A stretch of DNA of 24,000 bases from Peptostreptococcaceae bacterium VA2. Its GTDB lineage: Bacteria; Bacillota; Clostridia; Peptostreptococcales; Peptostreptococcaceae. Both the position numbers and the translations under genes were made by a program. Shown here piece by piece: positions 2,181-23,827 of the stretch (positions are counted from its first letter, which is position 1; the number at the start of each line of letters is the position of its first letter). Under the pieces are notes generated by a model. It saw nothing but the letters and a program-made list of their open reading frames with translations, made no database searches and was not told the origin of the DNA. Where the stretch lies: NCBI GenBank assembly GCA_000686145.1, contig JMMB01000001.1, forward strand, positions 1 to 24,000, in the 5' to 3' direction.

Positions 2181-2411
2181 GTCATCCTCCAAATGTATTT
2201 TATATAATATCCTTATGTATTCCTAAGGATACCGAGATACGTGTAAAAACCGGCCACATCTTCTGTATATATGTTGGTATTACTAGATTTCACGCTTGAT
2301 TTTTTTAAAAATTATACCTTTTATCTAACCTGCGTTTTTTACGAAAAAAAGCACCAAAGTTGCTTCAATCTCTGTAAAATCAATAGCTTAGCCATTTTTT
2401 TTAATATATCG

Positions 2412-5544: not shown

Positions 5545-5714
5545 TATACGAATAAAAGCAAGACAGTTTTTGTATTAAAAATCATAAAAAGGTAGACACA
5601 TTTTGTTATAGTTAATACATTACTTGACTTATTTAAAAAAATTAATTATTATATATTTATATCAAATTATGTAATATTATTGCATAATAATTTTGTAGTA
5701 TAGGGGTGATTGCT

Positions 5715-6326
5715 ATGGGAATAGATACAGATCCTCTTATCTTAGCTGCTAAAAGTTATGAAAAGTTAATTAATAAGAATTTCGACATAACTATAGATAC
5801 TAAAGATGGGAATACAAAGACTATTCAGGTTCATTTCAAAAAAGATAATTTTTATCATCTAATTGGATTTCACTATTTAAAAGATTTACCACAACTTAAT
5901 ACTAGACATAATAAAAAGAATAAGATTTTTAATAATGTACTACAAGGTACTATTACATATAATTCATTAAAGAGTAGTTCTCATTTTGATAATAAAATAG
6001 ATGATAGAGTTAACTATTTTCATAATATAGATAAATTACTATTTGAGAAGGTTATCTTAGACTTTGATGCATGTAACGTAAGTCTTAAAACTAATTTAAA
6101 ATGCGATTATATGTTTTTTAAGAATAAGAATGGAAAGTACATGCATCTAAGTTTAGCTCAAGATAAAAATCATTATCCAGAGAGCTTTTTTGTTAGAGAT
6201 GATAGTGCATACATCAAAGATCAAGATATATTTGATATAGTTTTAATCAAAGAAGTTGAGAAAAATAAGTCTAAAAAAATCAAAAAAAGCATCCAACATA
6301 AGTTAGATGCTTCTATAGTTAATTAG
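5715..6326 (+). CDS. PBECR4-like (Barnase-EndoU-ColicinE5/D-RelE-like) putative nuclease
   Basis: The ATG at 5715 lies 6 nt after AGGGGTG. The pattern A.SYEKLINK.F.I.......T..IQV.F.K.NFYHLIGFHYLKD matches my recollection of PBECR4-domain proteins. This assignment is unverified. Confidence 0.5.
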   Translation: MGIDTDPLILAAKSYEKLINKNFDITIDTKDGNTKTIQVHFKKDNFYHLIGFHYLKDLPQLNTRHNKKNKIFNNVLQGTITYNSLKSSSHFDNKIDDRVNYFHNIDKLLFEKVILDFDACNVSLKTNLKCDYMFFKNKNGKYMHLSLAQDKNHYPESFFVRDDSAYIKDQDIFDIVLIKEVEKNKSKKIKKSIQHKLDASIVN

Positions 6327-7398: not shown

Positions 7399-7866
7399 AT
7401 GTTAAAAACACCTTTAGGAAATTTAATTGTTCAAAAGAATAATATAGAGATAGATTATAGTGCGATACCACAACCTTTAAGAATTTTTGATAAACTAAAT
7501 TACTATGTTGATGCAAGATATCTAATAGATATTGATACCAAAACTATTAAATCAGGTGATACAATCAAATACTTTATTGATTGCAAGAATGTTGAGACAG
7601 ATATTGATGGTGGAGAATACTTAGCACTTTTAAACTTGAGAAATAATAATCTATTGATGAGTTTAGGTGTCTATGAAATACTCTATCGTAGCCATAAAAA
7701 AGATTTTGGCTTTGATGTATGTTATATTGATAATGGCTTAGAATCATATTTTATTGATAATAAATACACTGAAAAATTTAGATTGGCGATATCATGGATA
7801 GAGTTAAAAGATGATCTGGATGAAATATCAACTTGGTATGCTTCAGATCCAACGTTATTTAATTAA
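7399..7866 (+). CDS. Hypothetical protein
   Basis: 155-aa ORF with RBS AAGGAGA 7 nt upstream and a terminator immediately downstream. I recognise no motif. Confidence 0.65.
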   Translation: MLKTPLGNLIVQKNNIEIDYSAIPQPLRIFDKLNYYVDARYLIDIDTKTIKSGDTIKYFIDCKNVETDIDGGEYLALLNLRNNNLLMSLGVYEILYRSHKKDFGFDVCYIDNGLESYFIDNKYTEKFRLAISWIELKDDLDEISTWYASDPTLFN

Positions 7867-7878
7867 ATAGATAGGAGA

Positions 7879-7919
7879 AGAGTTGAAGTAGGAGCAAAAA
7901 ACACCCCTACATCAACTCT
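7879..7919 (+). terminator. Rho-independent terminator of 7399-7866 (also the terminal stem-loop of repeat copy A)
   Basis: agagttgaagtagg / cctacatcaactct stem followed by tttttatt. Confidence 0.75.
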
Positions 7920-8130
7920 TTTTATTATATGTTGGGGTCAAACTTAAGGGTCGAGTCTGACTTCACAGATTGTAGCTGAGAAGCGCTACAAACTGTGAGG
8001 CCAGCCTCAAAACGTACTGCATGAGTTAATTCTTACTTTTCTAAATTAAATAATATTTTTCATGAAAAAAGCACTTGTAATTTTATATACTTTACAAGTG
8101 CTTTTCTATGCTTTTAATAGTATTTCTTCT

Positions 8131-8182
8131 ATATTACAAATCATATTACTACTAGTAATATCAAATATTACTTTTATATTAC
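8131..8182. repeat. Phased array of five ATATTAC/GTAATAT heptamers (iteron-like)
   Basis: The heptamers start at 8131, 8143, 8155 (inverted), 8165 and 8176, a spacing of 10-12 bp. The array lies in a non-conserved spacer of copy A. Confidence 0.6.
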
Positions 8183-8918
8183 CAACTCTGTATATCTTGA
8201 CATAGCTATACTTCAAGTTACTATTTATAGAGTTTGGCTGTCGCCACCGCGCTTTCTCTGCAATCTTTTGAGCAAAGAACACTCAAAAGGATTTTCGTTC
8301 AATCGCTAACTCAAAACCCACCCTTCTATAGTAATTTTCATATATTTTGAAAGTAAATTACTTTCTAGTTAATTTAACTGTTTATCGAAAAGATTGGCCT
8401 TCGACCCTGCCCCTCTGACTAATCTCAAAAGCACGAACACAATTCGCTCCTAAAATACTTCGCAAACATCATATTTCATATCAAGTCTGCTTTGTATATT
8501 ATCCGCTCATTTGTGTTCGTAGCTTATTTAAGATAGCCATTCACTGCCCTAAGCCCAATGCCCTGTATATTTGTTTTTGTTGGTGCATAACTCCAAATAA
8601 AGTCTATTGAGCCTTCACATTTTTAATAATAAATTTTTATTGCTACTTTAAAGGTTTATCTCTCCTATTAACTACATAAGTATAGTTAGTTAGTGCCGGC
8701 AATATAGTTTAATTGTTGGTACTACGCATTGGATAAAACCATTGCTCCGCTATCCAACGCTAGTCTATATTAGCTTTTAATAATGTATTTATCATTTATG
8801 TACATTTTAGCAACAATTATTGTTTCGTTATTTATATATGTTTAATAATTTTCTTGTCATAACTTAACAGTATTGATGCTTTTTGAGTGTTCAAAAAAAC
8901 ATCTATTTTGGTGGACCC

Positions 8919-8945
8919 TTGTCAAATAGCAACTTATGGTATAAT
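8919..8945 (+). promoter_or_regulatory. Sigma-A-like promoter for the NUDIX gene
   Basis: TTGTCA (8919-8924), 15 nt, then TGgTATAAT (8937-8945). The spacer is slightly short. Confidence 0.45.
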
Positions 8946-8992
8946 TAGACTTACAAGTTAAGTATGAAAATTAAAGAGGGGAAAGATTTGAT

Positions 8993-9442
8993 ATGATTAA
9001 TGTTGATTTTTTTAAATGGGATGAAATAAATGATAAGGATTTATTATTTGCTGTAATAGTATCAAGATTTCAACACAAATGGATTTTAGCAAAGCATAAA
9101 GATAGAGAAACTTGGGAAATTCCAGGTGGTCATAGAGAAAAAGGGGAAAAAATAAATATTACAGCATCAAGAGAACTTCAAGAAGAAACAGGAGCAAAAG
9201 AATTTAAACTTACACCCATTTGTATTTATTCAGTAACAAAAGAAGATGGTGATAAAACAAAACACCCAGTATCAACATTCGGAGGTTTATATTTTGCAGA
9301 AGTAACAGAACTTGGAGATTTACCAAATCTTGAAATCGAAGAAATTAGATTTTTTAACAACTTGCCAAATGAGTTAACTTATCCAGAAATTCAGCCTTGT
9401 TTACTTGATAAAGTAATTAAATATATTAATAATCAGCATTAA
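8993..9442 (+). CDS. NUDIX hydrolase
   Basis: Complete Nudix box GHREKGEKINITASRELQEETGA (GX5EX7REUXEEXGU). RBS AGAGGGG upstream and a terminator downstream. Confidence 0.9.
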   Translation: MINVDFFKWDEINDKDLLFAVIVSRFQHKWILAKHKDRETWEIPGGHREKGEKINITASRELQEETGAKEFKLTPICIYSVTKEDGDKTKHPVSTFGGLYFAEVTELGDLPNLEIEEIRFFNNLPNELTYPEIQPCLLDKVIKYINNQH

Positions 9443-9485
9443 AAAATATATTATCACCACTTGATAATACATGGTATATATGAGT

Positions 9486-9509
9486 TAGGAGCAAATGCTC
9501 CTATTTTTT
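9486..9509 (+). terminator. Rho-independent terminator of the NUDIX gene
   Basis: taggagc-aaat-gctccta followed by tttttt. Confidence 0.75.
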
Positions 9510-9729
9510 AAACATATATTATTGTTAACAGATTTAATCTTAAACTAAAATTTAATATATCAAACTAATACAATAAAAAGTTGTACATGAAAATAAATAT
9601 ATGTTTTCGTGTACAACTTTTTAGGTGTCATAACTTTATAATTACGATACCTTGTTTTCATATATTAGTTATAAGGTCTGCAACAATATCAAAACTCAGA
9701 ATCAAAAAACTAGTCATAAGACTAGCTTT

Positions 9730-10394
9730 TCATATTATATAAGCATCTGCAAAACCTTTATTTTTAGCCATTTGAACTTGATTTACAGCGTTGTTTTTAT
9801 CTCTGATATGCACCAATACAAACCTTATACAAGATGTCGTTATTAACTTTTTCTAACCCAAATAACTCTATTAAATTATCTCTAATTATAGAAACTACTG
9901 CTTTAATACTTGCACTAACTTTTAAATCTTTTTCAGCTTCTATTATTTGATATAAAATCAACTTCAATTAAGCTAGCTGGCATAGTTGTGTTTTTCAAAA
10001 CTGAAAGCGCCTTACTATATTTAACTCCCCTATTTCTAGAATTAAAAATCTTTGAAATATCCTCACAAACTCTCTTAGAAAAATTATTCATCTTAGTATT
10101 ACCATTGCTGTACTGCCATATTTCAACTCCTCTAACACTCTTATCCGAAGCTGAATTGATATGAATAGACAAAAAATAATCTGCCTTAAAATCATTTGCT
10201 ATCCTAGCTCTCTCACTCAATGATAAATACTTATTTTCTAGTCTTGTAAATTTAACTTCTATCTCACAATTTTTCAATAACTCATTTAACTCTTTTCCTA
10301 TAGCTAAAACCACATCTGCTTCATGTGTTTTATTTTGTCCAACCGCTCCTGAGTCATTTCCTCCATGCCCTAAATCAATAACTAATCTTTTCAT
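9730..10394 (-). pseudogene. N-acetylmuramoyl-L-alanine amidase (Amidase_3) with a C-terminal SPOR-like domain, frameshifted
   Basis: ORF 9933-10394 has GHGGNDSGAVG, SIHINS and LIEVDFISN. Downstream, in other frames, are IIEAEKDLKVSASIKAVVSIIRDNLIELFGLEKVNNDILYKVCIGAYQR and then KNNAVNQVQMAKNKGFADAYII* (SPOR-like). At least two frameshifts separate these pieces. Confidence 0.75.
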
Positions 10395-10520
10395 AAAATC
10401 CCCTTTCCACTTATTAATATTTTTTTATTAACAAATTCACTGTATTGCCTAACCACTTCATTTCCCCCACACATTACTCAAATCTATGTATAATTTAATT
10501 ATAGAATTTGGAGGGATTTT

Positions 10521-10625
10521 ATGGATAGAAAAGATATAAACGCACAATTTTTAAAAAATAAAATAGGAAAAAATAATTTTAAAATACTGCTAGATTACTT
10601 ATTACATTTAAGCACACGAAAATAG
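10521..10625 (+). CDS. Possible 34-aa small protein
   Basis: GGAGGG lies 5 nt upstream of the ATG. The sequence is MDRKDINAQFLKNKIGKNNFKILLDYLLHLSTRK* and is followed by hairpin 10623-10651. There is no other support. Confidence 0.3.
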   Translation: MDRKDINAQFLKNKIGKNNFKILLDYLLHLSTRK

Positions 10626-10656
10626 CCTGTATATTAGCTTGTACAGGCTTTATTAT

Positions 10657-11058
10657 TTATTTATTATAGTTTGTATTGAAAGCAAAGCTTTTAAGCTCTA
10701 AACCTTTAATCTCACCACTTGACCAACTATCATTTACTTTATCTTCTTTTTCATTCATACTAGTAGTTTTTTTACTGGATCTTGTGCTCTTGCTCTTAAT
10801 TTTTTGAGTATTAATCTTTTTCTCATGAGCCTTTTCTTTCTTTGCTTGTTTTTGTTTATATTCTTCAAACTTTAAAACCCCAAAATTTTTAATCATAGCT
10901 TGCTCTGTAATAATCCAAGTTGTCCCTATTTTTTTAATATCCTCATCAATAACAAACTTACCACGAGCCACCTTTTTTCTTAAACAAGAAGCATCTATGC
11001 CATATATTTCTTCTATATCTAAAAACGTATACAACCCTTTAAAATTCCCAATTGCCAT
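10657..11058 (-). CDS. HTH DNA-binding protein with a lysine-rich tail
   Basis: 133-aa ORF. The N-terminus LDIEEIYGIDASCLRKKVARGKF....IKKIGTTWIITEQAM is an excisionase/MerR-like small HTH. The C-terminal half is K/S-rich. Confidence 0.65.
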   Translation of the reverse strand: MAIGNFKGLYTFLDIEEIYGIDASCLRKKVARGKFVIDEDIKKIGTTWIITEQAMIKNFGVLKFEEYKQKQAKKEKAHEKKINTQKIKSKSTRSSKKTTSMNEKEDKVNDSWSSGEIKGLELKSFAFNTNYNK

Positions 11059-11123
11059 AACATTTCCCCCTTAAAACTTCTATGCTTTATATATTCTACA
11101 TAACAAAATAAATCCATTTTTAT

Positions 11124-11230
11124 TTTCACGCAAACGTGACAAATTAAGGCTTGATCATAAAAAATAATGTCACGTTTACGGGACATTACTTTTATATTTA
11201 TTAGTTTTTAAATGTCCTGTTTGCGTGACA
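11124..11230. promoter_or_regulatory. Three copies of an 18-bp palindromic operator TGTCAC-N6-GTGACA upstream of 10657-11058
   Basis: 11124-11141 (reverse complement TGTCACGTTTGCGTGAAA), 11168-11185 (TGTCACGTTTACGGGACA) and 11213-11230 (TGTCCTGTTTGCGTGACA). Centres are ~44-45 bp apart. Confidence 0.65.
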
Positions 11231-11269
11231 TTTAGATATTTTAAATAAATCTAATTCTTTTTATAAAAT

Positions 11270-12100
11270 ACTTTCTTAAAAGCTAGATAGACCAGCATTT
11301 GATAACGGAGCAATGGTTTTATCCAATGCGAAATACCAAGTTAGAAACTTTATACCGACACCAAATAACTCTACTCATTTAGTAAATTAAAAATATAAAC
11401 TTAAAAATATTTACACGATAAATTATCAAAAACGTGGAGGTCCATAAACTATTAATGGAAAAAAATCTAAAAACTAAACACACAGGGCATTGGGCGAAGG
11501 GGCAGTGAATGGCTATGCTCAAAAGCTACGAACACATGCGAGCGGATAATATACGAAGCAGACTTGATATGAAATATGATGTTTGCGAAGTATTTTAGTA
11601 GTGAGTAGTGTGAGTGCGTTGAGTATTAGTCAGAGGGGCATGGCCGAAGGCCAATCTTTCTGATAACCAATAAAACTAATTAGAAACCAACTTACTTAAA
11701 ACCTAAATAAAACTTTAGATTTAAAAATGGTTTTGAGTTAGCGATTGAACGAAAATCCTTTTTAGCGCACTTTGCTAAAAAGATTGAAGAGAAAGCGCGG
11801 TGGCGAAGCCAAACTCCCAAAGTATCAATATTAGGTATAGCAACTATAATATCCATATAATCAACGAATTAAATTATATAAAAAAATTATTATTAAAGTC
11901 TCAAGTACCTCAAATCCAAAAGCTAAATCTAATCAAAAAACTTATAAATAACCAATGCACCAGGTCTTTAGTCTGGCATCACAGTTTATAGCGGTTCTTA
12001 GCTATTATCTGTGAGGTCAGACTCGACCCCAAAGCTTTTGACCCCAGCATATAAATAGAGATAGTTGAGGTAGGAGCGCTCTTTGCTCCTTCGTCAACTA
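11270..12100 (+). ncRNA. Copy B of the large non-coding paralog pair (candidate structured RNA; strand inferred)
   Basis: Mirror of 7879-8786. A -10-like TATAAAAT lies at 11262-11269. The terminal stem-loop at 12061-12101 is followed by cacccttttt. The only ORF (11800-11991) falls in a spacer that copy A does not conserve. Confidence 0.45.
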
Positions 12101-12253: not shown

Positions 12254-12871
12254 ATGATTGATAATACTATTTATTTAATAGGTCAATTAATAAATACAAT
12301 AGCTCAAATTGTATTATTTAGCAGTATTCCATTTTTATGGTATATTATTTCAAAAAGAAGTTTTAAGGGAGTATTTAAATATTTAGGGTTAAAAAATACT
12401 AATAAACAAAATTATTTTCAAGCTTTAAAAATAACTAGTTTAGCATATATTTTTTCATTCTCTATTATAGTTATCCTTAAGTTAATTCAAGGAGGAATGT
12501 CTTTAAATCCTTTAGACGGTTCATATGATAGAGGACTTATTATTTTTACTATATCTTTAGTTCTATTTGGCATAAAGGCTGGTCTTAGTGAAGAGATACT
12601 TTTTAGAGGATTTTTAGGAAAAAGGTTAATATGTAAGTTTGGATTTTTAAAAGGAAATTTATTGCAAACTGGAATTTTTATACTTCCTCATGTATTTACA
12701 TTTGGAAAATCGCCTACTTTAGAAGTGATTTTTGGGCTTATAAACGCCGCTATTATAGGATATGTATTTGGATATATTATGGATAAGAAATCAAATGGAA
12801 GTATTTTGCCAATTATAATTTGTCATGGAGTTGTAAACATTACTTCATCAATTATAATAAATATTATATAA
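12254..12871 (+). CDS. CPBP family intramembrane glutamic endopeptidase (CAAX protease / Abi-type)
   Basis: Multi-TM protein with motif 1 SEEILFRGF, motif 2 FILPHV and motif 3 ICHGVVN. RBS GGGGGAG. Confidence 0.85.
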   Translation: MIDNTIYLIGQLINTIAQIVLFSSIPFLWYIISKRSFKGVFKYLGLKNTNKQNYFQALKITSLAYIFSFSIIVILKLIQGGMSLNPLDGSYDRGLIIFTISLVLFGIKAGLSEEILFRGFLGKRLICKFGFLKGNLLQTGIFILPHVFTFGKSPTLEVIFGLINAAIIGYVFGYIMDKKSNGSILPIIICHGVVNITSSIIINII

Positions 12872-14172: not shown

Positions 14173-14310
14173 ATTTTATTAACTTACAAAGCTATATCCT
14201 TAATTTTTTCATAAAAAATATTCCACAAAAATAATACTCAACTATATTTTAGGACTTAACACAACCCTCCTACTACAATGAAATTAATCAAAACAAAAGG
14301 AGGTACTAAA

Positions 14311-14553
14311 ATGCCAGAATTAAAATTAGCTGATGATGTAGTAGAAATTAAAAACCAATCATCATTAAAAATCAAATATGACTGTGGTTTAGATGATAAC
14401 CAAAAAGTAATAACAAAAACAAGAAGTTATTCAAATGTGAAAGCTGGTGCAAAACCACTTGATGTATTCAACGTAGCTGAGACATTAATATCACTTCAAA
14501 AACACGACAAGTTATCAGTAATGAAACAAGATAACACAGAATTAGCTTTATAA
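14311..14553 (+). CDS. DUF1659-like small protein
   Basis: The ATG at 14311 follows AAAGGAGG. The sequence LKIKYDCGLDDNQKVITKTRSYSNVK...A.DVFNVAETLISLQ, and the pairing with the next two genes, is the Firmicute DUF1659-DUF2922-YvrJ arrangement as I recall it. Confidence 0.65.
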   Translation: MPELKLADDVVEIKNQSSLKIKYDCGLDDNQKVITKTRSYSNVKAGAKPLDVFNVAETLISLQKHDKLSVMKQDNTELAL

Positions 14554-14575
14554 AAAAACAAAGGAGGAATAAAAA

Positions 14576-14809
14576 ATGGAAAACTTAGAAACTAAACTTT
14601 TAATGACATTCTCAACAGACTTTGGAAAAAAGGTCAGCTTATTTGTAACAGATCCAAGACAAGACTTAACAGAAGCAGAAATAAAAGCTGCAATGGATAT
14701 AATAGTTCAAAAGAATATATTTGCACCAGGTGGAGAAGATTTAAAAACTCCAATAGAAGCAAAACTAGTTCAAACAGAAACTACAGAATATGACCTTGCA
14801 GTTGCGTAA
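14576..14809 (+). CDS. DUF2922-like small protein
   Basis: RBS AAAGGAGG. The sequence is LLMTFSTDFGKKVSLFVTDPRQDLTEAEIKAAMDIIVQKNIF. Confidence 0.65.
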   Translation: MENLETKLLMTFSTDFGKKVSLFVTDPRQDLTEAEIKAAMDIIVQKNIFAPGGEDLKTPIEAKLVQTETTEYDLAVA

Positions 14810-14893
14810 CACATGGAACACTTAAGAAATGTCCCTCTAAGCGCCGGAGGGGCTTTCTTAGCATATTTATAGGTTAATAGGAGGAATAAGTCA

Positions 14894-15049
14894 ATGGAAT
14901 TAGATTTAATGCAACTCGTGGCTAATTTGGGGTTTCCAGCAATAGTTACAATGTATCTATTGGTACGTATCGAAGGGAAACTAGATGGCCTAAGTTCAAG
15001 TATCAACTCTTTAAGCTCAAATATTAATGAATTAAATAATAAAAAGTAA
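14894..15049 (+). CDS. YvrJ family small membrane protein (absent from the ORF track)
   Basis: 51 aa: MELDLMQLVANLGFPAIVTMYLLVRIEGKLDGLSSSINSLSSNINELNNKK. RBS AGGAGGAA. The motif GFP..V..YLL.R.E.KLD is typical of YvrJ proteins. Confidence 0.65.
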   Translation: MELDLMQLVANLGFPAIVTMYLLVRIEGKLDGLSSSINSLSSNINELNNKK

Positions 15050-15153: not shown

Positions 15154-15417
15154 TTAAGCACTTTTTTTCTGTTTATTTATAATAGATCTTATATAACTTT
15201 CAGACATATTGTATTTAATAGCTAGTTCTTTATGGTTAAAACCATTATACTCAGCCATAATTTCTCTGTCACGAACCCCTTTATATATCATCTTTTCCGT
15301 AGGAAAATACACAGATGTCCCTCCAAATTCTTTGAATAATAACTTAGCTCTCTCTATTCCAAGCTCTTGTGCTATATTTTCAAATTGTGGAGGTAAGTCA
15401 CTTAGTTTTAATTTCAT
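15154..15417 (-). CDS. Mor-family-like transcriptional activator (small HTH)
   Basis: The ATG at 15417 lies 6 nt after AGGAGGTG. The sequence FGGTSVYFPT......RDREI..EYNG.NHKELAIKYNMSESYIRSII matches the Mor/CD3324-like pattern. Confidence 0.6.
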   Translation of the reverse strand: MKLKLSDLPPQFENIAQELGIERAKLLFKEFGGTSVYFPTEKMIYKGVRDREIMAEYNGFNHKELAIKYNMSESYIRSIINKQKKSA

Positions 15418-15513
15418 ATAAAACACCTCCTATAAACTTATTTATAGTTGATATTCTACAAATATTATATTTAACCTACTAAAATACTTAATTTTTAATA
15501 ATATTTTCTAATT

Positions 15514-16746
15514 CTATATCATTGAATCTTCTAACAGTAATTTTTTTTGATCATTTTCTAATAAATTCTTATCTTGATTTAAAGAGATAGTATCGCCATA
15601 ACTTAAGGCCATATTTTCAATGATACCACTTGTTATTTGACCTGTTTGCTCTATAGTTTTTTCCTTTGACTTTAAAAATCCAGCTATAATTTGATTTTGT
15701 CTAGATGAAACTCCTTCTAGTTGCTTAAACATAATCTCTGTTTGTATAGCTGCATCTTTTTCAATCATATTTTTATACATATTGTAAGAATCCGAACCCT
15801 TCTCAAAGCCTTCCATAATTCCTAAAAGCATTGGGAACTTATTAGCTTGATAATCTAAATTATCAGCTTTTATCTTATCTGCTAATTCCCCATAGAACCT
15901 TTCTATATCTTTATTTAAAGCTAAAGACCCTTTTTCTATTATTTCTAATCTTTTTTCAGTTATTTCATCTAACTTACTTTGCATAGCTACTATTGTTTGA
16001 GCTATACAACTTAAACCTCTAGCCTTGGCTTCCTCATGAGCTAATTTAAAATAATATTCTTTTTCTAAAACATCTAACTTAACATCTCTTATTAAATTTA
16101 TTTTTTCTTGCTCCATGTGGACTAAGTTTATTTTTAAATCTCTTTCTATCTCTGCTATTTTAACTTTATCTGGTTCATACGTAGTAGTTGTTGAACTCCT
16201 ACTTCCTCCTACACTACTTTTTCCACCAAATAAACCACCTATAAATCCACCTATTTTTCCTAGTAATCCCATGCTTTCTGTACTCCTTATTGTATTACAA
16301 TCCTTATTAAGTATCGTATTGAATATTTTGTCTATTTGAACACTTCTAAATCTACCTAAAGTACATACATTTGAAAAATGTTCACAGTTATTAAATATTA
16401 AATTATATCCATTATCACCTATACAACATCGTGCATATTGGACTATATGCTCCGCTGGATATAAATCTTTTATTTCTTCTTCCGTATATTCCTTAACCTC
16501 TAATATTCCATCTTTCAAGAACACATCTAAATTAGTTGTAATAACTTCATTTTTTGACCAATCTAATATATTATCATTGTCTTGTCCTGTAAAGTGAATA
16601 ACTTCATCATGAGATACATATATCCCATGATGATTATAAATACCTCTATTAACTCTTATATGATCACCTTTTGATGGTTCTTTCTCTGCCCATATTTCAT
16701 TAGGTGTTTGAACTACTAAATTTGGATATTTTGGTACTACACTCAT
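15514..16746 (-). CDS. LRAT / NlpC-P60 superfamily (PLAAT-like) domain protein with a glycine-zipper and coiled-coil C-terminal region
   Basis: The N-terminal ~140 aa contain GDHIRVNRGIYNHHGIYVSHDEVIHF (His box) and YNLIFNNCEHFSNVC (NCEHF catalytic-Cys motif). These are followed by GLLGKIGGFIGGLFGGKSSVGGS and ~220 aa of heptad-rich sequence. The start is 10 nt after the upstream gene's stop. Confidence 0.75.
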   Translation of the reverse strand: MSVVPKYPNLVVQTPNEIWAEKEPSKGDHIRVNRGIYNHHGIYVSHDEVIHFTGQDNDNILDWSKNEVITTNLDVFLKDGILEVKEYTEEEIKDLYPAEHIVQYARCCIGDNGYNLIFNNCEHFSNVCTLGRFRSVQIDKIFNTILNKDCNTIRSTESMGLLGKIGGFIGGLFGGKSSVGGSRSSTTTTYEPDKVKIAEIERDLKINLVHMEQEKINLIRDVKLDVLEKEYYFKLAHEEAKARGLSCIAQTIVAMQSKLDEITEKRLEIIEKGSLALNKDIERFYGELADKIKADNLDYQANKFPMLLGIMEGFEKGSDSYNMYKNMIEKDAAIQTEIMFKQLEGVSSRQNQIIAGFLKSKEKTIEQTGQITSGIIENMALSYGDTISLNQDKNLLENDQKKLLLEDSMI

Positions 16747-16756
16747 ATTAATCCCC

Positions 16757-18838
16757 TTAAGCCATTAATTCTTTTCTCATCTTATACATCAATGAGTTAA
16801 ATTGCTTTTCTCTATTAGACTTTTCTTCACTATATAATTGTGCATCTGATATATAGTTTTCAATATTTCTTCTTTTTAAATCTGCAAATTGATTTAATAT
16901 TGTTTCAGATATTTTATTAAAATCCTTATCCTTTACAAAATATAATACTTCATTTACTTGTAAATCAATTATTGACTCTGCCCATTTAAGTAAAAATATT
17001 CTATCTTCAACGCTATCTAACTTAAATATAATATCTTGTAGTCTATTTTGGAATTTAACAGTTATTTTATATAGGTCACTTTCTACTTCAAGCTTTTCTT
17101 GAATATCTCCACCTGATACAAATGCATATTTTTGATGTATATTTTTTCTTTCATTCTTATAGAAATCATCTAAATCGTTATTGTATTGTTCTAATATGCT
17201 TATAACTTCTTCAATCATATATTTTGATTCATTTTCATCTTGAATAACTGATACAATAGATTTTTTGATACCTTGTTTGATTAATTCTGTAAAACTTTCT
17301 TCTATTGTATATTTTTTATTTCTCCAGTCTTTATACCAAGACATATACATATCTTCTTCTATTCCATCATCTTCACTTAAAGATTTTAAATCTTCTTTAT
17401 CTTTAGTTTTAAATACTTTGTAATTTTCACTCCATTTAGACTCTGCATTGATTACATTTATTACAAAATCTTTATTAGCTTCAAAATATTCTACTTTAAC
17501 TAAAGCATTTTTTATTATATTCGCAGTATTTTCTGCTATAAAATTAAAACTAGCTCTTTTTTCTTCTTTTAGCTCTGCTAGTAATAGTATTGAATTTTCA
17601 TTGTCATTTATTTCTTCAATTCTTGATTCTAGCTTATCTGCCTGACTTTTTACTGATAGTAGTTTAGTTTTAATACTACTCATTCCTAGGTCGATATTTT
17701 TTCTTAAAAATGCTTGTCTATTTTTTAAAAGTGTATTTTCTTCTTCATCTAACTTTAGATTATCTTCATACTTTTTAGATAGTTTAAGTCCACATACATT
17801 GAATTCTCTTATAATATCCCACTTTATTTCTTCAAAGTATTGTAATTTTGATATTAAGTCATCTATCCAACGTTGTATTGCTTCATAATATTTTATTATT
17901 GATGAATCTATTAAATTAATATCGTAGTTTATAAGTATTAAATTATAATCAAATGTTGATGATAACAACACTTCTGTTTGAAGCTCCTCTATTTTTGATT
18001 GAATTTCATTTAATTTATTTAAAAGAATAGGTTTTTCTTTATAAATACTTCTATAAAGTATAGTAATCTCTTCATCTTTAAATATTGGTTCTAAGTTGTT
18101 ATTAGTAAGTAAACTTAAAAACATTTGCAACTTTTCTTTCTTGGTATACACTTTATTATACTCATTTATATTAGATTCATATTTATCATTTGAAAAATTA
18201 TAACTACAAGCTATTATTCCTCCATAACAATACTCAGAACAAATATTATTACTATTTATAACTTTTAATTTTTCAGGATAACTCTTTTCAAAAGTATACC
18301 AATACTTTGAACTCTCAAGATGTTTTTTCGATGGAAAATCATAATCATTTATTAAACTATGTAAATAATCTCTTTCAATAAAGTTCCATTTTTTACATCC
18401 TTCTAATTTTAAATGTCCAACAATTTTTCTAGCCACTTCATTATCATAGTAATTTCCATTATTATCTTTATATTTAAAGTAATCTAGATTTGTTATAATT
18501 GCCCCTGTTTTTTTATCCATAATAATCTCAGGTTTATTTTTAAATAAATAATATCTTTGTTTATCTATTGCCTCTAATATTCTATCTATTCCATCGCTAG
18601 CAAGTAGATTAATTTCACTATTTAGTGAAACCAATCTACTTGCTATATTCTCTAAATCATTTTTCACCTTACTTTGCTTAGATAAAAGCTCTGACTTTTC
18701 ATTATTTAAATCTAATACTTTCTTTACATTAACAACATTATCTATACCTTCACAATTTTCCTGTATTATTGTTATTTGTTTTAATAAATCCTCTTTTAAT
18801 GATGTTAATTCTCCTAATGTTTTTTCTTCACAATTCAT
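16757..18838 (-). CDS. Large (693-aa) coiled-coil-rich protein of unknown function
   Basis: Uninterrupted 2082-nt ORF with RBS AGGAGAG. I see no Walker A, nuclease or other catalytic motif. Long K/E/L-rich heptad segments are present. Confidence 0.75.
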   Translation of the reverse strand: MNCEEKTLGELTSLKEDLLKQITIIQENCEGIDNVVNVKKVLDLNNEKSELLSKQSKVKNDLENIASRLVSLNSEINLLASDGIDRILEAIDKQRYYLFKNKPEIIMDKKTGAIITNLDYFKYKDNNGNYYDNEVARKIVGHLKLEGCKKWNFIERDYLHSLINDYDFPSKKHLESSKYWYTFEKSYPEKLKVINSNNICSEYCYGGIIACSYNFSNDKYESNINEYNKVYTKKEKLQMFLSLLTNNNLEPIFKDEEITILYRSIYKEKPILLNKLNEIQSKIEELQTEVLLSSTFDYNLILINYDINLIDSSIIKYYEAIQRWIDDLISKLQYFEEIKWDIIREFNVCGLKLSKKYEDNLKLDEEENTLLKNRQAFLRKNIDLGMSSIKTKLLSVKSQADKLESRIEEINDNENSILLLAELKEEKRASFNFIAENTANIIKNALVKVEYFEANKDFVINVINAESKWSENYKVFKTKDKEDLKSLSEDDGIEEDMYMSWYKDWRNKKYTIEESFTELIKQGIKKSIVSVIQDENESKYMIEEVISILEQYNNDLDDFYKNERKNIHQKYAFVSGGDIQEKLEVESDLYKITVKFQNRLQDIIFKLDSVEDRIFLLKWAESIIDLQVNEVLYFVKDKDFNKISETILNQFADLKRRNIENYISDAQLYSEEKSNREKQFNSLMYKMRKELMA

Positions 18839-18896
18839 TTTACTCTCTCCTAAATAAAAAATAATCCCTTAAACAAACCAAATTTTAATTTTATAT

Positions 18897-19337
18897 CTAT
18901 TCTAAAATAGAATTTTTCAACTCTTTTATCTGTTTTGTAGATTCATAACTATCAATTAGTAAAAAAGATTCTAAATCAGTTACCTCACTACCTAGAATCT
19001 CTACATAAAGTAAATTATTCAATGGGCTTTGCTTTATATCATCAATTTTACCTGTAAGAACATCTAATATTAAAGTTAATATCATATCAATTGTAACGCC
19101 ATTTGCTCTTAATAACTTCCCATGTGCTATTCTAACCAAAGTCATATCATTATCCTCAAATAATAATACACACTTATCTAAATCAGCTAAAATTTTAGTC
19201 TTATTAATCAAAGTGTAACCATTATCAGATAATGTCTTAAGAAAATCATGTATAAACTCTCTATCTCTAGGATAAATACACTCTCCATTTATGCTAGAGA
19301 TTAAAATTTTATCACCTTTCATAGCCCTTACATTCAT
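18897..19337 (-). CDS. Hypothetical protein (146 aa)
   Basis: The start is moved to the ATG at 19337 (GGAGAG 7 nt upstream), which removes the overlap with the upstream gene. I recognise no motif. Confidence 0.6.
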   Translation of the reverse strand: MNVRAMKGDKILISSINGECIYPRDREFIHDFLKTLSDNGYTLINKTKILADLDKCVLLFEDNDMTLVRIAHGKLLRANGVTIDMILTLILDVLTGKIDDIKQSPLNNLLYVEILGSEVTDLESFLLIDSYESTKQIKELKNSILE

Positions 19338-19362
19338 AAGTATACTCTCCATTATTATTAAC

Positions 19363-19599
19363 TTATTTTCTATACTTTGAAAAATCAATAACTTCCGCTA
19401 AGACCTTTTTTTCTTCTACAACAATTCTTTCTAAAGTCTGTTTATCTAAATAAGTATGAACTCCATCTTCTTCTATATCTGGTAATGCATACTCCATATA
19501 ATCAACCCATAGTTCTTCATTACTTAGCTTAGTATTGTAATACTTAAAATAATAAGTAATGCTTCCACTAATCTTTAACCACAGTTTTTTATCATCCAT
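19363..19599 (-). CDS. Hypothetical protein (78 aa, acidic)
   Basis: RBS AGGAGG upstream. No convincing terminator separates it from the Rep gene. Confidence 0.6.
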   Translation of the reverse strand: MDDKKLWLKISGSITYYFKYYNTKLSNEELWVDYMEYALPDIEEDGVHTYLDKQTLERIVVEEKKVLAEVIDFSKYRK

Positions 19600-19661: not shown

Positions 19662-20921
19662 CTAAGAGGACGTTTCATTAAACTTTTTTTCTTTAATTTC
19701 TTTTATAATTTGAGATACTCTTCCCTTTGTTAATCCCAATTCTTTAACTATTTGTACTTGTTTATATCCTTTTTCATATAGCTCTTTTACTGCATTAATA
19801 TTATCTAATCTATCTTGTTCCCTTTTAGTTAATCCATTTTCATTTCTTCTTTTAGCTTTTTTCTTTTCTTTTTGTTCCTCTGCACTTCTTCTATATTTTT
19901 CTTTGCCAGATATAATCGTTATTAGATGTTCCTGCTCTTGTAAAGATATATCTAATATCTCAATTAATTTTGTATTAGTATATTTGTATAATTTATTTTC
20001 ATAGGCTCTTGTAGCCGACTTAGTATCTCTGATAACTTCATTCTCTGGTAATGGCTTTTTAAACATATCATTTAACTCTAGTGCTCTTCTTAAAGCTTCC
20101 TCTGCATCTTCTGTAAAGCAGGCTGAGTAATACCTATATAAAAACAATATAACTTCTCTATGCCCTTCTACATCATAATTTCTAAGTTCACAAACCTTAG
20201 TTATATCAATTACTCTTGCATGATAAAGACTATATTCAGTAAAAAGGCTCACCATTTTTTTAGGTCTACCCTTTGACTTCTTCTTTTTATTTATCTCCGG
20301 TAAATATTCCTCTTGTATTTCTTTTAATGAATACTCATAATCATATGCATCCAAAATCTCAACACAAGTTCCACTCTTTGAATTCATAGTACCAACTATC
20401 CTTAAAACTCTAGTTGGATCAAGTGCATTTGCATCTGCTCCAAATTGTTTTAAAGAATTAAATAAATATCTTTGTACCGCATACCATAAAGGTAGCGCCA
20501 TACTTGGAACTGGTTTTATTAAAATAACATAATAAAGTCCACGCCCACTATCTATTAAATAATTAGGTCTTGGTATTTTAGATCCATATAAGTCATGTTC
20601 TAAAAAATATTGAACTGCATCTTTAGTATATTTTGAGTTGTAGCAATCTATATCAATATAAACAGCTCTAAGCTCCTTTATATTCTCAATTCTTCTTTGT
20701 GGTCTATAAAATGTATTTTGAGATACATAAGTATTTATATTACTTATAATTTCATCACTTCTTTGTAGTAAATCATCTTTTTTATAGTGCCATTGGCTAT
20801 AGTCAGGATTTTTCTTAGCAATAGTTATATATCCTTCGCTGTCTTTATGTAAATTTGTTAAATGTTTCCTTGATTCATCTATGTTAACTTCATCATTTTC
20901 CTTTAATTTAAATGCTTGCAT
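19662..20921 (-). CDS. Plasmid/element replication protein, primase-polymerase (AEP)-like N-domain with a C-terminal HTH
   Basis: The sequence has ELRAVYIDIDC (DxD), SGRGLYYV and TRVLRIVGTMNSKSG, which resemble AEP/prim-pol Rep motifs. A basic linker is followed by the HTH GYKQVQIVKELGLTKGRVSQIIKEIK. RBS AGGGGGAG. Confidence 0.55.
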   Translation of the reverse strand: MQAFKLKENDEVNIDESRKHLTNLHKDSEGYITIAKKNPDYSQWHYKKDDLLQRSDEIISNINTYVSQNTFYRPQRRIENIKELRAVYIDIDCYNSKYTKDAVQYFLEHDLYGSKIPRPNYLIDSGRGLYYVILIKPVPSMALPLWYAVQRYLFNSLKQFGADANALDPTRVLRIVGTMNSKSGTCVEILDAYDYEYSLKEIQEEYLPEINKKKKSKGRPKKMVSLFTEYSLYHARVIDITKVCELRNYDVEGHREVILFLYRYYSACFTEDAEEALRRALELNDMFKKPLPENEVIRDTKSATRAYENKLYKYTNTKLIEILDISLQEQEHLITIISGKEKYRRSAEEQKEKKKAKRRNENGLTKREQDRLDNINAVKELYEKGYKQVQIVKELGLTKGRVSQIIKEIKEKKFNETSS

Positions 20922-21367: not shown

Positions 21368-21911
21368 TTAATTTTCAGAAAATTTATTTACTTTCGAATT
21401 ATTATTTACTTTATTCCACATATATTTTGATACTATCGGCTCTATGTTGAAGTTAATCTCATTCTTTTCTTTTTTGCTATGATACTCAAATACTCCAATA
21501 TAGTTTTTGTTTTTTAATATATAATCTACCTTCTGCTTTGAAAATACATACTTAGTTCCTATCTTAGCTAATGAAACGCCCTTAGACCTTAATTTAAATA
21601 TATCTTTTACTATTTTAGCTTCGTCTTCATCAATTTCAAATTTACCATGTTTATTTACTTTATATCCTAATGATGGCTTACCACCAACCCATTTATTTTC
21701 ATTAAGTCTTGCTATTCTACCATTGCGAGTTCTTTCATTTATAATAGCTCTTTCAAACTCTGCAAAGCTTCCTAGCATCTGTAAGAACAACATCCCTTGT
21801 GGTGTTGAGGTATCAAACATTTCTGTAACGCTTACTAAAGCAACCTCATGCTCTTGCAGTTCATAGATCATAGTCAATAGATTATATAGACTCCTATCAT
21901 TCTATAACGGT
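21368..21911 (-). pseudogene. Serine recombinase paralog lacking the N-terminal catalytic ~100 aa
   Basis: Collinear with codons ~105-end of 1426-2180, roughly 85-90% nucleotide identity by eye. Homology (..NDRSLYNLLTMIYELQ) stops at 21911, exactly where the TIR element begins. The C-terminus ..YIGVFEYHSKKEKNEINFNIEPIVSKYMWNKV.. is intact. Confidence 0.8.
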
Positions 21912-22184: not shown

Positions 22185-23492
22185 TTAGTTATTACTTATT
22201 GTTTTTAAAATTACATCTATAGGATTTTCCCAAACTTCTACATTAATATCTGGCATTAAAACAGTTTCATTGTCTCTAGATGCATCAGGTCTTAACCATT
22301 TTTTATATGAAATTTGGATCTCTAGTCCTGAATTTTCTAATTTAGGCCTTAATCCATCTCCAAATGAAGATGGTCTATTACTACTTGGCTTTCCTACTAT
22401 TGTTCCTAAATTCCCATCCTTAACCCATGTGGCTATCCATTGGGCTGAACTAAATGTGTTTTCATTAGTTATAATAAATAAGTTTATATCTTCATTTTTT
22501 ACCACACTATTGTTTCTTTCAAAAGTATCATAACCATCTTTTTTTAAATTTGGATATATTGATTGTGCTAAAGGTGAATATCTCACAATACTTCCAAAAT
22601 TTCCATGCTTAAATTTAAGTGCATTAAGTATCATACTACCCGCTTCTGACGTTCCTCCACCATTATCTCTAACATCTATTATTACATTTTCTAAGTCTTT
22701 ATTTATTTTTTTGTTTATATGTTCTATGACTTGATATAATTGTTCATTTACTTCACAAGTACCTAACTTAATATACATTGTTTGATTATCAATCATATTA
22801 CTTAAAATTTTATTTTTGTGGTCTGAGTGTTTTTTATTTTTTATAAATGTTATTTTTTCTTTTGTTTCTTTATATCCATCTTTTATAGTTATTATTATAT
22901 CTTTTGAACAATCAACACCTGCACTCATTAATACTAATTTATACTTTGATATTTCTGATCGATTTAAACTATTGCCAACAAAGTTTTCGGATGCAGAGAT
23001 TCTATCTACTTCATCTATAATTTTATGTATTTTTATATTATTTATTTTTGTAACAGTTTTTTTTGTAGGTTTGTTGTTTTCATCAAAAATTACTAATTCA
23101 TCATTTGTATATTTCCAATTAATATCTAAGTACATTGATGGTATCCATAATACACCTGTATGTCCATCTTCTATTGAAGATAAATATTTGCTTAATGCTA
23201 ATTGAAATTCACCTACTGTCATACATCTATTAGTTTCCTTTATAAATTGTCTTTTTATCTTTATATACTTTTTAGGATATTTATCTAAGAAAATTGGGTG
23301 TACACCCTCCATAGACTTTATCGCTTTATCCCTATCCTCTTTTATATCTCTTTTATTAACTTCCCTATCTAACTTATATTCATTTGTATATAAATGTCTA
23401 TCGTAACAATTACTAAGCTTATTTAGATTATATATAACTATGCAAAATATTAATATTAAGAAAATTCTATACATAGTAGCACGTTTTTTCAT
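22185..23492 (-). CDS. S41 family peptidase (C-terminal processing / tail-specific type), membrane-anchored
   Basis: N-terminal signal/anchor sequence. The motifs VIIDVRDNGGGTSEAG and ITNENTFSSAQW...GTIVGKPSSN match the S41 core. RBS GGAGGA. Confidence 0.8.
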   Translation of the reverse strand: MKKRATMYRIFLILIFCIVIYNLNKLSNCYDRHLYTNEYKLDREVNKRDIKEDRDKAIKSMEGVHPIFLDKYPKKYIKIKRQFIKETNRCMTVGEFQLALSKYLSSIEDGHTGVLWIPSMYLDINWKYTNDELVIFDENNKPTKKTVTKINNIKIHKIIDEVDRISASENFVGNSLNRSEISKYKLVLMSAGVDCSKDIIITIKDGYKETKEKITFIKNKKHSDHKNKILSNMIDNQTMYIKLGTCEVNEQLYQVIEHINKKINKDLENVIIDVRDNGGGTSEAGSMILNALKFKHGNFGSIVRYSPLAQSIYPNLKKDGYDTFERNNSVVKNEDINLFIITNENTFSSAQWIATWVKDGNLGTIVGKPSSNRPSSFGDGLRPKLENSGLEIQISYKKWLRPDASRDNETVLMPDINVEVWENPIDVILKTISNN

Positions 23493-23659: not shown

Positions 23660-23827
23660 ATGGAAATAATAAAAAAATCTGAAGGTATATCACCATATGT
23701 AATTGAATGTGGACCTAATGGTAGATGTGATAGTCAATGTTCTTGCAGGACTGCTTGTGTAAATAAATGTAAGGGACAGCAATGTGGTGTTCAAGTGTGT
23801 GTAGGACCACTTGGAAGAGTTTCATAA
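23660..23827 (+). CDS. Cys-rich RiPP precursor peptide (8 Cys in 55 aa; SCIFF/ranthipeptide-like, possibly the 'Clo7bot' type)
   Basis: MEIIKKSEGISPYVIECGPNGRCDSQCSCRTACVNKCKGQQCGVQVCVGPLGRVS, absent from the ORF track. Strong RBS AGGAGGTG. A paralogous leader lies at 1184. Confidence 0.75.
   Translation: MEIIKKSEGISPYVIECGPNGRCDSQCSCRTACVNKCKGQQCGVQVCVGPLGRVS

Follow-up and report, generated by a model that had tools for sequence, protein, structure and literature searches.

We analysed a window of 24,000 nucleotides (nt) from Peptostreptococcaceae bacterium VA2 (contig JMMB01000001.1, positions 1 to 24,000), an AT-rich stretch (~26% GC) in which the gene for a replication initiator (Rep) is followed on the same strand by four open reading frames (ORFs). 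These lie on the minus strand at 19363-19599, 18897-19337, 16757-18838 and 15514-16746 and encode proteins of 78, 146, 693 and 410 amino acids (aa). The initial annotation of this DNA had listed the four genes and the gaps that run from Rep through the 78-, 146- and 693-aa ORFs to the 410-aa ORF (62, 25, 58 and 10 nt), and coordinates and gaps alike proved exact. It had also seen no terminators between the genes; a consensus scan of the minus strand from 21321 to 15077 likewise found no terminator-like hairpin, the first one lying at 15077-15057, 3' of the Mor gene downstream. Its further proposal was that all four genes form one cassette. Comparison with other genomes shows that the unit consists of the last two genes, at window positions 15,514-18,885 on the minus strand, which encode a protein with a PLAAT/LRAT (lecithin retinol acyltransferase) domain and its 693-aa partner. 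The pair contains the following features.

18839..18885, minus strand: conserved leader and ribosome-binding site of the pair (…TTTATTTAGGAGAGAGTAAAATG), where homology with the loci L110 and L112 restarts
16757..18838, minus strand: partner gene, 693 aa, a proposed sensor or scaffold and one half of the conserved pair
18563..18817, minus strand: N-terminal coiled coil of the partner, residues 8-92 (helices 8-29 and 35-92 in the AlphaFold 2 model, with low local confidence)
18089..18562, minus strand: alpha/beta domain of the partner, residues 93-250, possibly C-type-lectin-like (Lcl_C/DUF1566; AlphaFold 2 and a weak PF07603 similarity)
18179..18481, minus strand: hypervariable mosaic patch of the partner, residues 120-220 (entropy, identity and substitution rates)
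16760..17944, minus strand: conserved all-alpha C-terminal domain of the partner, residues 299-693, the family core (AlphaFold 2 and alignment)
15514..16746, minus strand: effector gene, whose long product of 410 aa comprises a PLAAT/LRAT domain, a glycine-zipper anchor, a Gly/Ser linker, a YEPDK motif and a helical hairpin
16309..16698, minus strand: PLAAT/LRAT (permuted NlpC/P60) catalytic domain, residues 17-146, with the Cys121 codon at 16384-16386
16283..16288, minus strand: internal Shine-Dalgarno sequence AAGGAG, 10 nt upstream of the Met159 ATG, read directly in the sequence
15514..16272, minus strand: predicted nested ORF of 252 aa (glycine zipper and hairpin, no enzyme domain), with its ATG at 16272-16270
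16219..16272, minus strand: glycine zipper or short hydrophobic segment, residues 159-176, a proposed membrane anchor
15580..16179, minus strand: YEPDK motif and long antiparallel helical hairpin, residues 190-389

The two genes form an obligate pair. Hidden Markov models (HMMs) built for the LRAT domain, for the linker plus hairpin and for the partner were run on the ORFs of all fetched loci, and pairing was counted over the 45 species-level loci with a full-length gene. Partner and LRAT genes are adjacent at 42 of these loci, and at 41 the partner gene directly precedes the LRAT gene on its strand, at a distance of -17 to +29 nt. The two genes overlap by 4 nt at 17 of the 41; in the window they are 10 nt apart. 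One of the remaining loci has a partner on both sides, one has a divergent partner, and two are on contigs too short to tell. The divergent case, L043 (Solibacillus sp., 7873-11131), is the only locus with a partner-like gene on the opposite strand; this gene (702 aa, a weak score of 133) nearly abuts the LRAT gene. The reverse order, with the LRAT gene first, occurs in Clostridium perfringens, in C. butyricum CBM588 and in the distant lineages L064 and L069. All-against-all BLAST of the flanking ORFs detected no third gene that recurs across lineages, and the variable downstream genes (281, 392, 168, 121 and 243 aa) have no significant Pfam match. In the window the upstream boundary of the pair is marked by the conserved leader at 18839..18885, just downstream of the stop codon of the 146-aa ORF. 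Expanded versions of four to six genes are found in Cloacimonadota, Delongbacteria, Ignavibacteriales and Riflebacteria (L059, 77-7557; L063, 7022-12158; L069, 9920-14455; L064, 1518-5975); besides the LRAT-hairpin gene they have a separate gene for an LRAT domain by itself (152-163 aa), one or two genes for the hairpin by itself (227-251 aa) and either one or two paralogues of the partner.

Homologues number 676 for the 410-aa protein and 561 for the 693-aa protein, nearly all of them full length. An exhaustive profile search of 1.84 billion representatives placed the partner in 507 clusters at 50% identity, and in none of these is it fused to an enzymatic domain. Relatives of the 410-aa protein occur in 452 of 185,579 genomes (one per species), some of them as stand-alone LRAT domains. 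Among the 80 best matches listed, the hosts are mainly Clostridia, Bacilli and Negativicutes, with scattered cases in Proteobacteria, Cloacimonadota, Riflebacteria and Ignavibacteriales, and the closest 50-odd are mostly Firmicutes, Negativicutes included. The taxonomic spread is patchy, the genomic position of the pair is not conserved, and the pair is horizontally mobile. Its description as Rep-linked holds within the small plasmid family of the window; elsewhere the pair is chromosomal in most copies, and the partner is found on only 3 of 72,556 PLSDB plasmids. Neither 50,697 phage genomes nor 2.9 million IMG/VR contigs contain the partner, and no full-length LRAT-hairpin relative was found in IMG/VR, only viral contigs with distant stand-alone LRAT domains.

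In NCBI the two proteins go by the names 'lecithin retinol acyltransferase family protein' and 'hypothetical protein'. None of the 78-, 146-, 693- and 410-aa proteins matches PADLOC-DB v2.0.0 at E≤0.1, and NCBIfam and PHROGs yielded nothing useful for the four. We found no description of the pair in the literature on LRAT, PLAAT, NlpC/P60 or DUF1566 in connection with defence or phage, and two recent large discovery papers do not mention LRAT, NlpC or PLAAT. This agrees with the initial annotation, which recognised no named system here. The pair is a real and widely conserved functional unit, so far unnamed.

The 410-aa protein had been called LRAT-like, and its match to PF04970 bears this out (Pfam; E 1e-24, 87.5 bits against a cut-off of 24.3, residues 23-132). 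Foldseek against PDB returned human AdPLA/PLAAT3/HRASLS2 (4fa0, 7zom, 4dot, 4dpz) at E 1e-5 to 1e-4, with target-normalised template modelling (TM) scores of 0.71-0.72 and 26% identity, and phmmer returned structures of PLAAT3/AdPLA/HRASLS2-4 at E 5e-6 to 8e-4. H39, H51 and C121 align with His23, His35 and Cys113 of PLAAT3 in the permuted order, His before Cys, with C121 in an NCEHF motif, and all three are invariant across 58 family members. Profile, fold and catalytic triad, the last of them intact, place the domain firmly in the LRAT/PLAAT family. We propose that it is a phospholipase A/acyltransferase. Permuted NlpC/P60 enzymes, LRAT among them, are lipid-directed; the LRAT clade has been treated as belonging to lipid metabolism, and its sister clade Tox-Act1 consists of lipid-targeting toxins of type VI secretion systems (T6SS; PMC12994826).

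In the AlphaFold 2 model of this protein (mean predicted local distance difference test, pLDDT, 69; predicted TM score, pTM, 0.35) the LRAT domain mostly reaches pLDDT 80-94. Variability within the protein peaks (2.58 bits) in the ~12 residues that follow it, 147-158. Beside them lies the glycine zipper MGLLGKIGGFIGGLFGG at residues 159-175, which reads M159-GLLGKIGGFIGGLFGG and has a low entropy of 1.15 bits; M159, G166 and G174 are nearly invariant, as is G181 in the following linker. The NCEHF motif and the zipper had both been pointed out in the initial annotation, and both are present and conserved in the alignment. Farther on, Y190, E191, P192, D193 and K194 are invariant and lead into the hairpin, whose helices span residues 194-311 and 319-389 with pLDDT up to 94. 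Neither fold nor sequence comparison with PDB gave the hairpin a significant relative. Some variants, in Cloacimonadota and Ignavibacteriales among others, encode it by a gene of its own, and in Cloacimonadota, Ignavibacteriales and Delongbacteria such a gene can stand next to a separate one for the LRAT domain. Assignments of the hairpin to the ESCRT-III/PspA type or to alpha-pore-forming toxins were considered and not adopted, each of them resting on non-significant matches.

PLAATs have their membrane anchor C-terminal to the catalytic domain, where the proposed anchor of the 410-aa protein also lies, and the C-terminally anchored members carry a short hydrophobic segment there, as the 410-aa protein does. 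The bacterial protein thus shares with the eukaryotic PLAAT/HRASLS/LRAT enzymes (PF04970, permuted NlpC/P60 phospholipase A1/2-acyltransferases) the fold, the Cys-His-His triad, the permuted order and the NCEHF motif. Unlike them it has a glycine zipper instead of a classical transmembrane helix, followed by a helical hairpin of 200 residues; it is obligately paired with a 690-aa partner, and an internal start predicts an isoform without the enzyme.

This internal start in the 410-aa gene and the hypervariable domain in the 693-aa protein were both absent from the initial annotation. We evaluated the Shine-Dalgarno sequence in the 45 distinct homologues with Met at the position of Met159, at spacings of 4-12 nt and against a background of 16,222 other codons from the same genes. 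A Shine-Dalgarno-like motif of at least 4 nt is present in 40 of the 45 homologues compared with 10.6% of the background (binomial p 7e-34), and a core of at least 5 nt in 34 of the 45 compared with 1.8% (binomial p 2e-50), both values being uncorrected for phylogeny. Four homologues without Met have TTG or GTG instead, each with GAGGAGG or AGGAGG 7-9 nt upstream. The GGAG core is spread evenly over the three reading frames (17/16/13). Since the motif occurs in all frames and residues 147-158 are hypervariable, the conservation is at the DNA level. As read from these alignments, both the Shine-Dalgarno sequence and the start codon at Met159 are conserved.

Genes that lack the LRAT domain by nature begin at the same place. 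Partners of this kind next to 693-aa family members at L070 (6132-10759), L096 and L065 (4691-8254) start at the Met159 position; that of L096 (C. tagluense pCM008-B, 8971-11933) is a 254-aa protein, MGLLGTIGG…, with a hairpin HMM score of 331. The examples that start there include those in metagenome-assembled genomes of a Selenomonadaceae bacterium (252 aa) and of Campylobacter, and at L087 (Thaumasiovibrio occultus chromosome 2, 7853-10798) a 277-aa version with a different, amphipathic N-terminus stands beside a divergent 695-aa partner. The hairpin-only proteins of the LRAT-less variants measure 252-278 aa. Either the anchor-hairpin has a function of its own in these variants, or they are decaying copies. 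Because the Shine-Dalgarno sequence and start are conserved at the DNA level and natural LRAT-less variants start there, the 410-aa gene very probably gives two products, the 410-aa enzyme-anchor-hairpin protein and a predicted 252-aa anchor-hairpin protein.

The closest precedent for such an arrangement is Rpn, in which a short C-terminal protein translated from within the gene acts as antitoxin to the toxic full-length protein and the system protects against phage; Cas10d/Cas11d is another case of genes within genes (doi 10.1101/2023.05.02.539157). As with RpnL and RpnS, the 410-aa gene is predicted to give a full-length enzymatic protein and, from an internal start, a C-terminal product with the same oligomerisation domain. 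Rpn is a single-gene PD-(D/E)XK nuclease, whereas the present pair has a PLAAT-like lipid enzyme and a separate large partner, and the shared part is an anchor and coiled-coil hairpin in a short product predicted from sequence.

For the 693-aa partner, the earlier observation that it has no NTPase or nuclease domain is upheld by Pfam. Its description as largely coiled coil is not: the AlphaFold 2 model (pLDDT 78.5) has a coiled coil at residues 8-92 only, followed by a mixed strand/helix domain (96-250, pLDDT 80-94), a linker helix and a compact all-alpha domain (299-692, pLDDT mostly 80-90). The all-alpha domain contains many invariant Trp, Phe, Gln and Lys columns, and it is the only part that distant members match, their N-termini being unrecognisable. 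By Foldseek, no structure in PDB (best E 1.3) or BFVD (best E 0.2) resembles the model significantly, and a sequence-profile search of PDB returned no match either. PF07603 (Lcl_C) is hit at E≤0.01 by 26 of 56 family members, the best at 3.1e-7; three of these matches, for which scores were seen, reach 21-26 bits, below the gathering score of 34.9 bits. The assignment of the alpha/beta domain to the C-type-lectin-like Lcl_C/DUF1566 family is tentative because the window protein itself has no PF07603 match.

Within this domain lies a hypervariable patch. Column entropy is 2.47 bits over residues 120-215 and 1.0-1.1 bits over the rest of the protein, and amino-acid identity between the window and L110 is 43% in the patch (120-220) and 88% in the helical domain. 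The rate of nonsynonymous substitution (dN) is 6-10 times higher in the patch, and that of synonymous substitution (dS) is raised too. Averaged over regions, dN/dS is 0.41-0.62 in the patch, compared with 0.13-0.18 for the helical domain and 0.04-0.07 for the LRAT domain. The pattern of variation among close relatives resembles a mosaic of alleles. Variable proteins with the C-type-lectin fold of DUF1566/Lcl_C are frequent targets of diversity-generating retroelements, and DUF1566/CLec domains are classic variable ligand-binding modules (PMC11661182). The partner resembles them in having a domain of ligand-binding type that tolerates extreme variation, with its 100-residue hypervariable patch; it differs in that the similarity is sub-threshold, the variation looks like mosaicism between alleles and the protein is predicted to be cytoplasmic.

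The genomic neighbourhoods of the pair show a partial association with defence genes. Seven contexts were examined singly, and in six of them restriction or other conflict genes lie within ~10 kb, the seventh being the plasmid of the window itself. These genes include a PLD-DEAD-DUF3427 helicase, an Upf1-like helicase-nuclease and an M78 peptidase in C. perfringens; NucS and a DEAD-HNH helicase in Neobacillus; a cluster of SNF2, an N6-methyltransferase and ResIII in another context; GmrSD and HsdR in C. baratii; two methyltransferases and McrBC on a sister plasmid; and a recombinase, Nmad3 and GmrSD at a further locus. A less selective survey covered 195 proteins, the products of up to three flanking genes of at least 120 aa on each side at 46 species-level loci. 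About 20 of them or more, as read from family-level counts, match PADLOC models at E≤1e-10, among them SIR2-HerA, MkoC, BrxA/B, MADS, MzaA, CARF-HEPN, methyltransferases and PDC candidates. The mobile, defence-flavoured setting that the initial annotation perceived is real, the pair adjoining GmrSD, HsdR, McrBC, SIR2-HerA, Mokosh, BREX and SNF2 with a methyltransferase and ResIII in various genomes. No reverse-transcriptase family appears in the top-25 Pfam lists of the neighbours, with no search aimed at diversity-generating retroelements or a template repeat.

In the window the pair is surrounded by backbone and cargo genes of its replicon, a small plasmid of Peptostreptococcaceae type carrying the pair as cargo between Rep and Mor.

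19662..20921, minus strand: Rep, replication initiator with a C-terminal helix-turn-helix, 419 aa (phrog_9432 'replication protein', E 8e-32)
19363..19599, minus strand: 78-aa backbone ORF after Rep, outside the module, like a 105-aa ORF of Paraclostridium bifermentans plasmids
18897..19337, minus strand: 146-aa orphan ORF in the cargo slot, outside the module, with its own GGAGAG ribosome-binding site
15154..15426, minus strand: Mor-family transcription activator, downstream backbone gene (Pfam PF08765, E 6e-19)

The Rep end of the region has ~81% DNA identity to two small P. bifermentans plasmids (25 kb and 19 kb); in a megablast search of the region only this end matched, to three P. bifermentans plasmids, and there was no phage match. 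The backbone order in both of the small plasmids is Rep, a 105-aa ORF, variable content, Mor and the trio YvrJ/DUF2922/DUF1659, which the window also has at 14278-15049. The 105-aa ORF is 63-65% identical to the 78-aa ORF, a 27-aa internal deletion aside, and these plasmids carry it without the other three genes. Homology among the three plasmids ends at the stop codon of the 78-/105-aa ORF and restarts ~65 nt upstream of the Mor ATG, where a junction alignment places the beginning of the conserved Mor leader. The break and restart in homology therefore make window positions ~15,490-19,362 a variable cargo slot and the 78-aa gene part of the backbone. Of the two sister plasmids, one has nothing in the slot between Rep and Mor and the other has two unrelated genes there. 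In the latter, L002 (NZ_CP094939.1), the cargo at 7720-8820 consists of genes for 307 and 58 aa that have no recognisable domains and no significant Pfam match; the slot acts as a place of exchange for unknown genes. For the 146-aa protein, a search of 5.8 billion proteins returned only the protein itself, and tblastn against plasmids gave no match.

The pair itself is found on further sister plasmids. In L110 and L112 Rep, which is 68-69% identical to Rep of the window, is followed directly by the 693/410 pair, with neither small ORF between; the 146-aa ORF is missing, and similarity to the window restarts only ~45 nt upstream of the start codon of the 693-aa gene. L013 carries the pair with the same Mor-YvrJ-DUF2922-DUF1659 backbone on a contig that starts at the pair, Rep being out of view. 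Two of these plasmids have additional cargo: L013 (8776-13424) has two C5 DNA methylases and an Mrr_N-McrB/McrC system, and L110 (4093-5949) an SNF2/DEAD helicase, so this small plasmid family accumulates restriction or defence cargo. Members of the Rep family (window 19662-20921; L001 9294-10523; L002 9282-10520) bear the RefSeq name 'DNA-binding response regulator', which is misleading because phrog_9432, a weak PriCT_1 match and the C-terminal helix-turn-helix point to a replication initiator.

Taking these observations together, we give an even chance to the reading that the pair is an undescribed conflict module of sensor plus membrane phospholipase, probably encoding three polypeptides and carried here as plasmid cargo. 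The 693-aa partner would be a cytoplasmic sensor or regulator with an exchangeable, possibly lectin-like ligand-binding domain, and the 410-aa protein the effector, a cytoplasmic PLAAT-like enzyme held at or brought to the membrane by its glycine zipper. In the resting state the enzyme would be kept inactive, through contacts of its hairpin or coiled coil with the partner, through the short isoform, or through both; the short isoform could be an intragenic antitoxin or a co-assembly subunit, as RpnS is for RpnL. Recognition of a ligand derived from a phage or another invader by the variable domain would release the effector or let it assemble at the membrane, where it would degrade or re-acylate phospholipids, and the ensuing membrane collapse would kill or arrest the cell and abort the infection. 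Targeting to the membrane, sensing by the partner, what the short isoform does and any anti-phage phenotype are inferred.

The logic proposed here is that of cyclic oligonucleotide-based antiphage signalling systems (CBASS) with the patatin-like CapV, in which sensing of an invader leads to a membrane phospholipase and to death of the infected cell (PMC12480259). The pair differs from these in having no cyclase or nucleotide signalling and an unrelated enzyme fold and sensor; membership of CBASS was excluded, as PADLOC identifies no CBASS component among the proteins. We rate the general kind, a two-gene sensor/effector conflict module with an effector that acts on membrane lipids, as known and the components as unprecedented. 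Candidate defence systems that still await description are many. The suggestion in the initial annotation of a large protein working with a membrane-active-looking lipid effector is borne out in part: there is a PLAAT/LRAT enzyme with a glycine zipper in a conserved unit, and the role in defence or abortive infection remains a proposal.

Several observations weigh against this reading. The case for a defence function is made from the genes. Many defence systems are also borne by phages, and this pair is absent from the prophage and phage collections; nor do the proteins match any PADLOC v2 model. AlphaFold 2 confidence for the effector is modest, and because the zipper comprises only ~17 residues of moderate hydrophobicity, its insertion into the membrane is a guess. 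LRAT-family enzymes can be acyltransferases and not lytic phospholipases. In the partner, the Lcl_C similarity stays below threshold, with no match at all for the protein of the window, and since dN/dS in the patch stays below 1 we do not claim positive selection. Many of the flanking genes are housekeeping genes (thiamine kinase, MreB, FlgI, SRP54, transporters). The rate of PADLOC matches is suggestive, well above a background of a percent or two, and since it has no matched control and the count comes from the family level, the association with defence is suggestive and not established.

A more far-reaching version holds that the pair is a widespread immune system, with an effector that is the counterpart of PLAAT, controlled by an intragenic isoform lacking the enzyme and triggered by hypervariable, lectin-like sensing of phage. 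We consider this possible, at somewhat short of an even chance. Animal PLAATs rupture organelle membranes, and the family includes a picornavirus host factor; the PLAAT/LRAT fold is also found in the 2A H-box/NC proteins of picornaviruses.

Among the other explanations, the one that survives best is a toxin-antitoxin or addiction module that has no sensing dedicated to phage, in which the PLAAT-hairpin toxin would be neutralised by the short isoform, the partner or both. On the plasmid it would be co-transcribed with Rep and would stabilise the replicon by post-segregational killing. In four related plasmids or more the pair does belong to the transcription unit of Rep, an internal-start isoform fits an intragenic antitoxin, and chromosomal copies are often isolated amid housekeeping genes, as toxin-antitoxin loci are. 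We nevertheless regard it as unlikely: a partner of 690 aa with a hypervariable domain is unlike classical antitoxins, and most copies are chromosomal, the PLSDB count of the partner being only 3 in 72,556. Addiction and defence are not mutually exclusive.

It is also improbable, to a slightly greater degree, that the pair is a physiological system for remodelling membranes or lipids, in which an LRAT acyltransferase scaffolded by coiled coils would act in the manner of PspA or flotillin or in lipid or lipoprotein acylation, with no part in conflict. Enzymes of the LRAT/PLAAT family serve mainly in lipid metabolism, housekeeping genes are common among the neighbours, and the amphipathic segment and long hairpin loosely recall membrane-remodelling proteins, the Foldseek match to Vipp1 being non-significant (E 1.3). 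A housekeeping role in lipid metabolism is disfavoured because of the patchy distribution of the pair (~450 of 185,579 species genomes, consistent with horizontal transfer), its mobility and the hypervariability and mosaicism of the partner patch; its place as plasmid cargo in a variable slot, its recurrent restriction or defence neighbours and its unconserved genomic position argue in the same direction.

We consider it very improbable that the pair is a secreted interbacterial lipid toxin with its immunity protein, like the T6SS effectors Tox-Act1/TseH. The effector shares with these the permuted NlpC/P60 superfamily, which has been put to use in conflict against lipid targets (PMC12994826), and the hairpin gives weak, non-significant Foldseek matches to coiled coils of translocators and toxins, such as IpaB, TcdA1 and an LXG complex. 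It belongs to the LRAT clade, however, has no linkage to secretion systems and no small immunity gene, and is predicted to be cytoplasmic. A secreted toxin is disfavoured because there is no delivery signal or secretion context: neither N-terminus has a signal peptide (by eye), Pfam detects no LXG, PAAR, Rhs or other secretion-associated domain, and the neighbourhoods hold no secretion-system genes. In addition, the 'immunity' candidate would be larger than the toxin, and most hosts are Gram-positive and lack T6SS.

That all four genes after Rep act as one four-component system, as first suggested from their shared direction, close spacing and lack of intervening terminators, can hardly be credited, because the 78-aa ORF is backbone in plasmids without the pair, the 146-aa ORF is an orphan, and the pair stands alone in sister plasmids and at hundreds of chromosomal loci. 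The co-occurrence in other genomes that the initial annotation had named as its own refutation test is found for the 693/410 pair and not for the 78- and 146-aa genes, and the four-gene operon was accordingly rejected as a conserved system. Tight, terminator-free spacing downstream of a plasmid Rep gene is not evidence of a functional cassette.

Other genes of the window belong to the plasmid at large. Adjoining Rep, a 169-aa ORF (21368-21877, minus strand) matches the Recombinase domain but, of the resolvase catalytic domain, only its C-terminal end (profile positions 84-144), and looks like a 5'-truncated serine recombinase gene. A 55-aa Cys-rich peptide (23660-23827, plus strand; …CGPNGRCDSQCSCRTACVNKCKGQQCGVQVC…) with no Pfam match adjoins an S41-family peptidase with an N-terminal hydrophobic segment (22185-23492, minus strand); the two may form a bacteriocin locus or one resembling those for ribosomally synthesised and post-translationally modified peptides. 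Further plasmid cargo comprises a resolvase (1521-2192, minus strand), a PBECR4 (Barnase/EndoU/RelE-like) nuclease (5706-6326, plus strand), a NUDIX hydrolase (8993-9442, plus strand), an apparently short Amidase_3 protein of 153 aa (9933-10394, minus strand) and an Rce1/CPBP-like intramembrane protease (12254-12871, plus strand), of a kind that often confers bacteriocin immunity.

The conserved internal start would follow Rpn as a second well-supported 'gene-within-a-gene' regulator among conflict systems. Should the pair prove to be a defence system, it would represent a new family with components new to the field, namely a PLAAT-like effector and a partner with no significant Foldseek match in PDB or BFVD, and one more innate-immune effector fold would be common to bacteria and eukaryotes. 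If the more far-reaching reading as an immune system is true, the PLAAT/LRAT fold would join the immune modules common to bacteria and animals. Hosts of the pair include C. perfringens, the probiotic C. butyricum CBM588 and numerous Firmicutes of the gut and rumen, organisms in which the determinants of phage-host interaction are poorly known.

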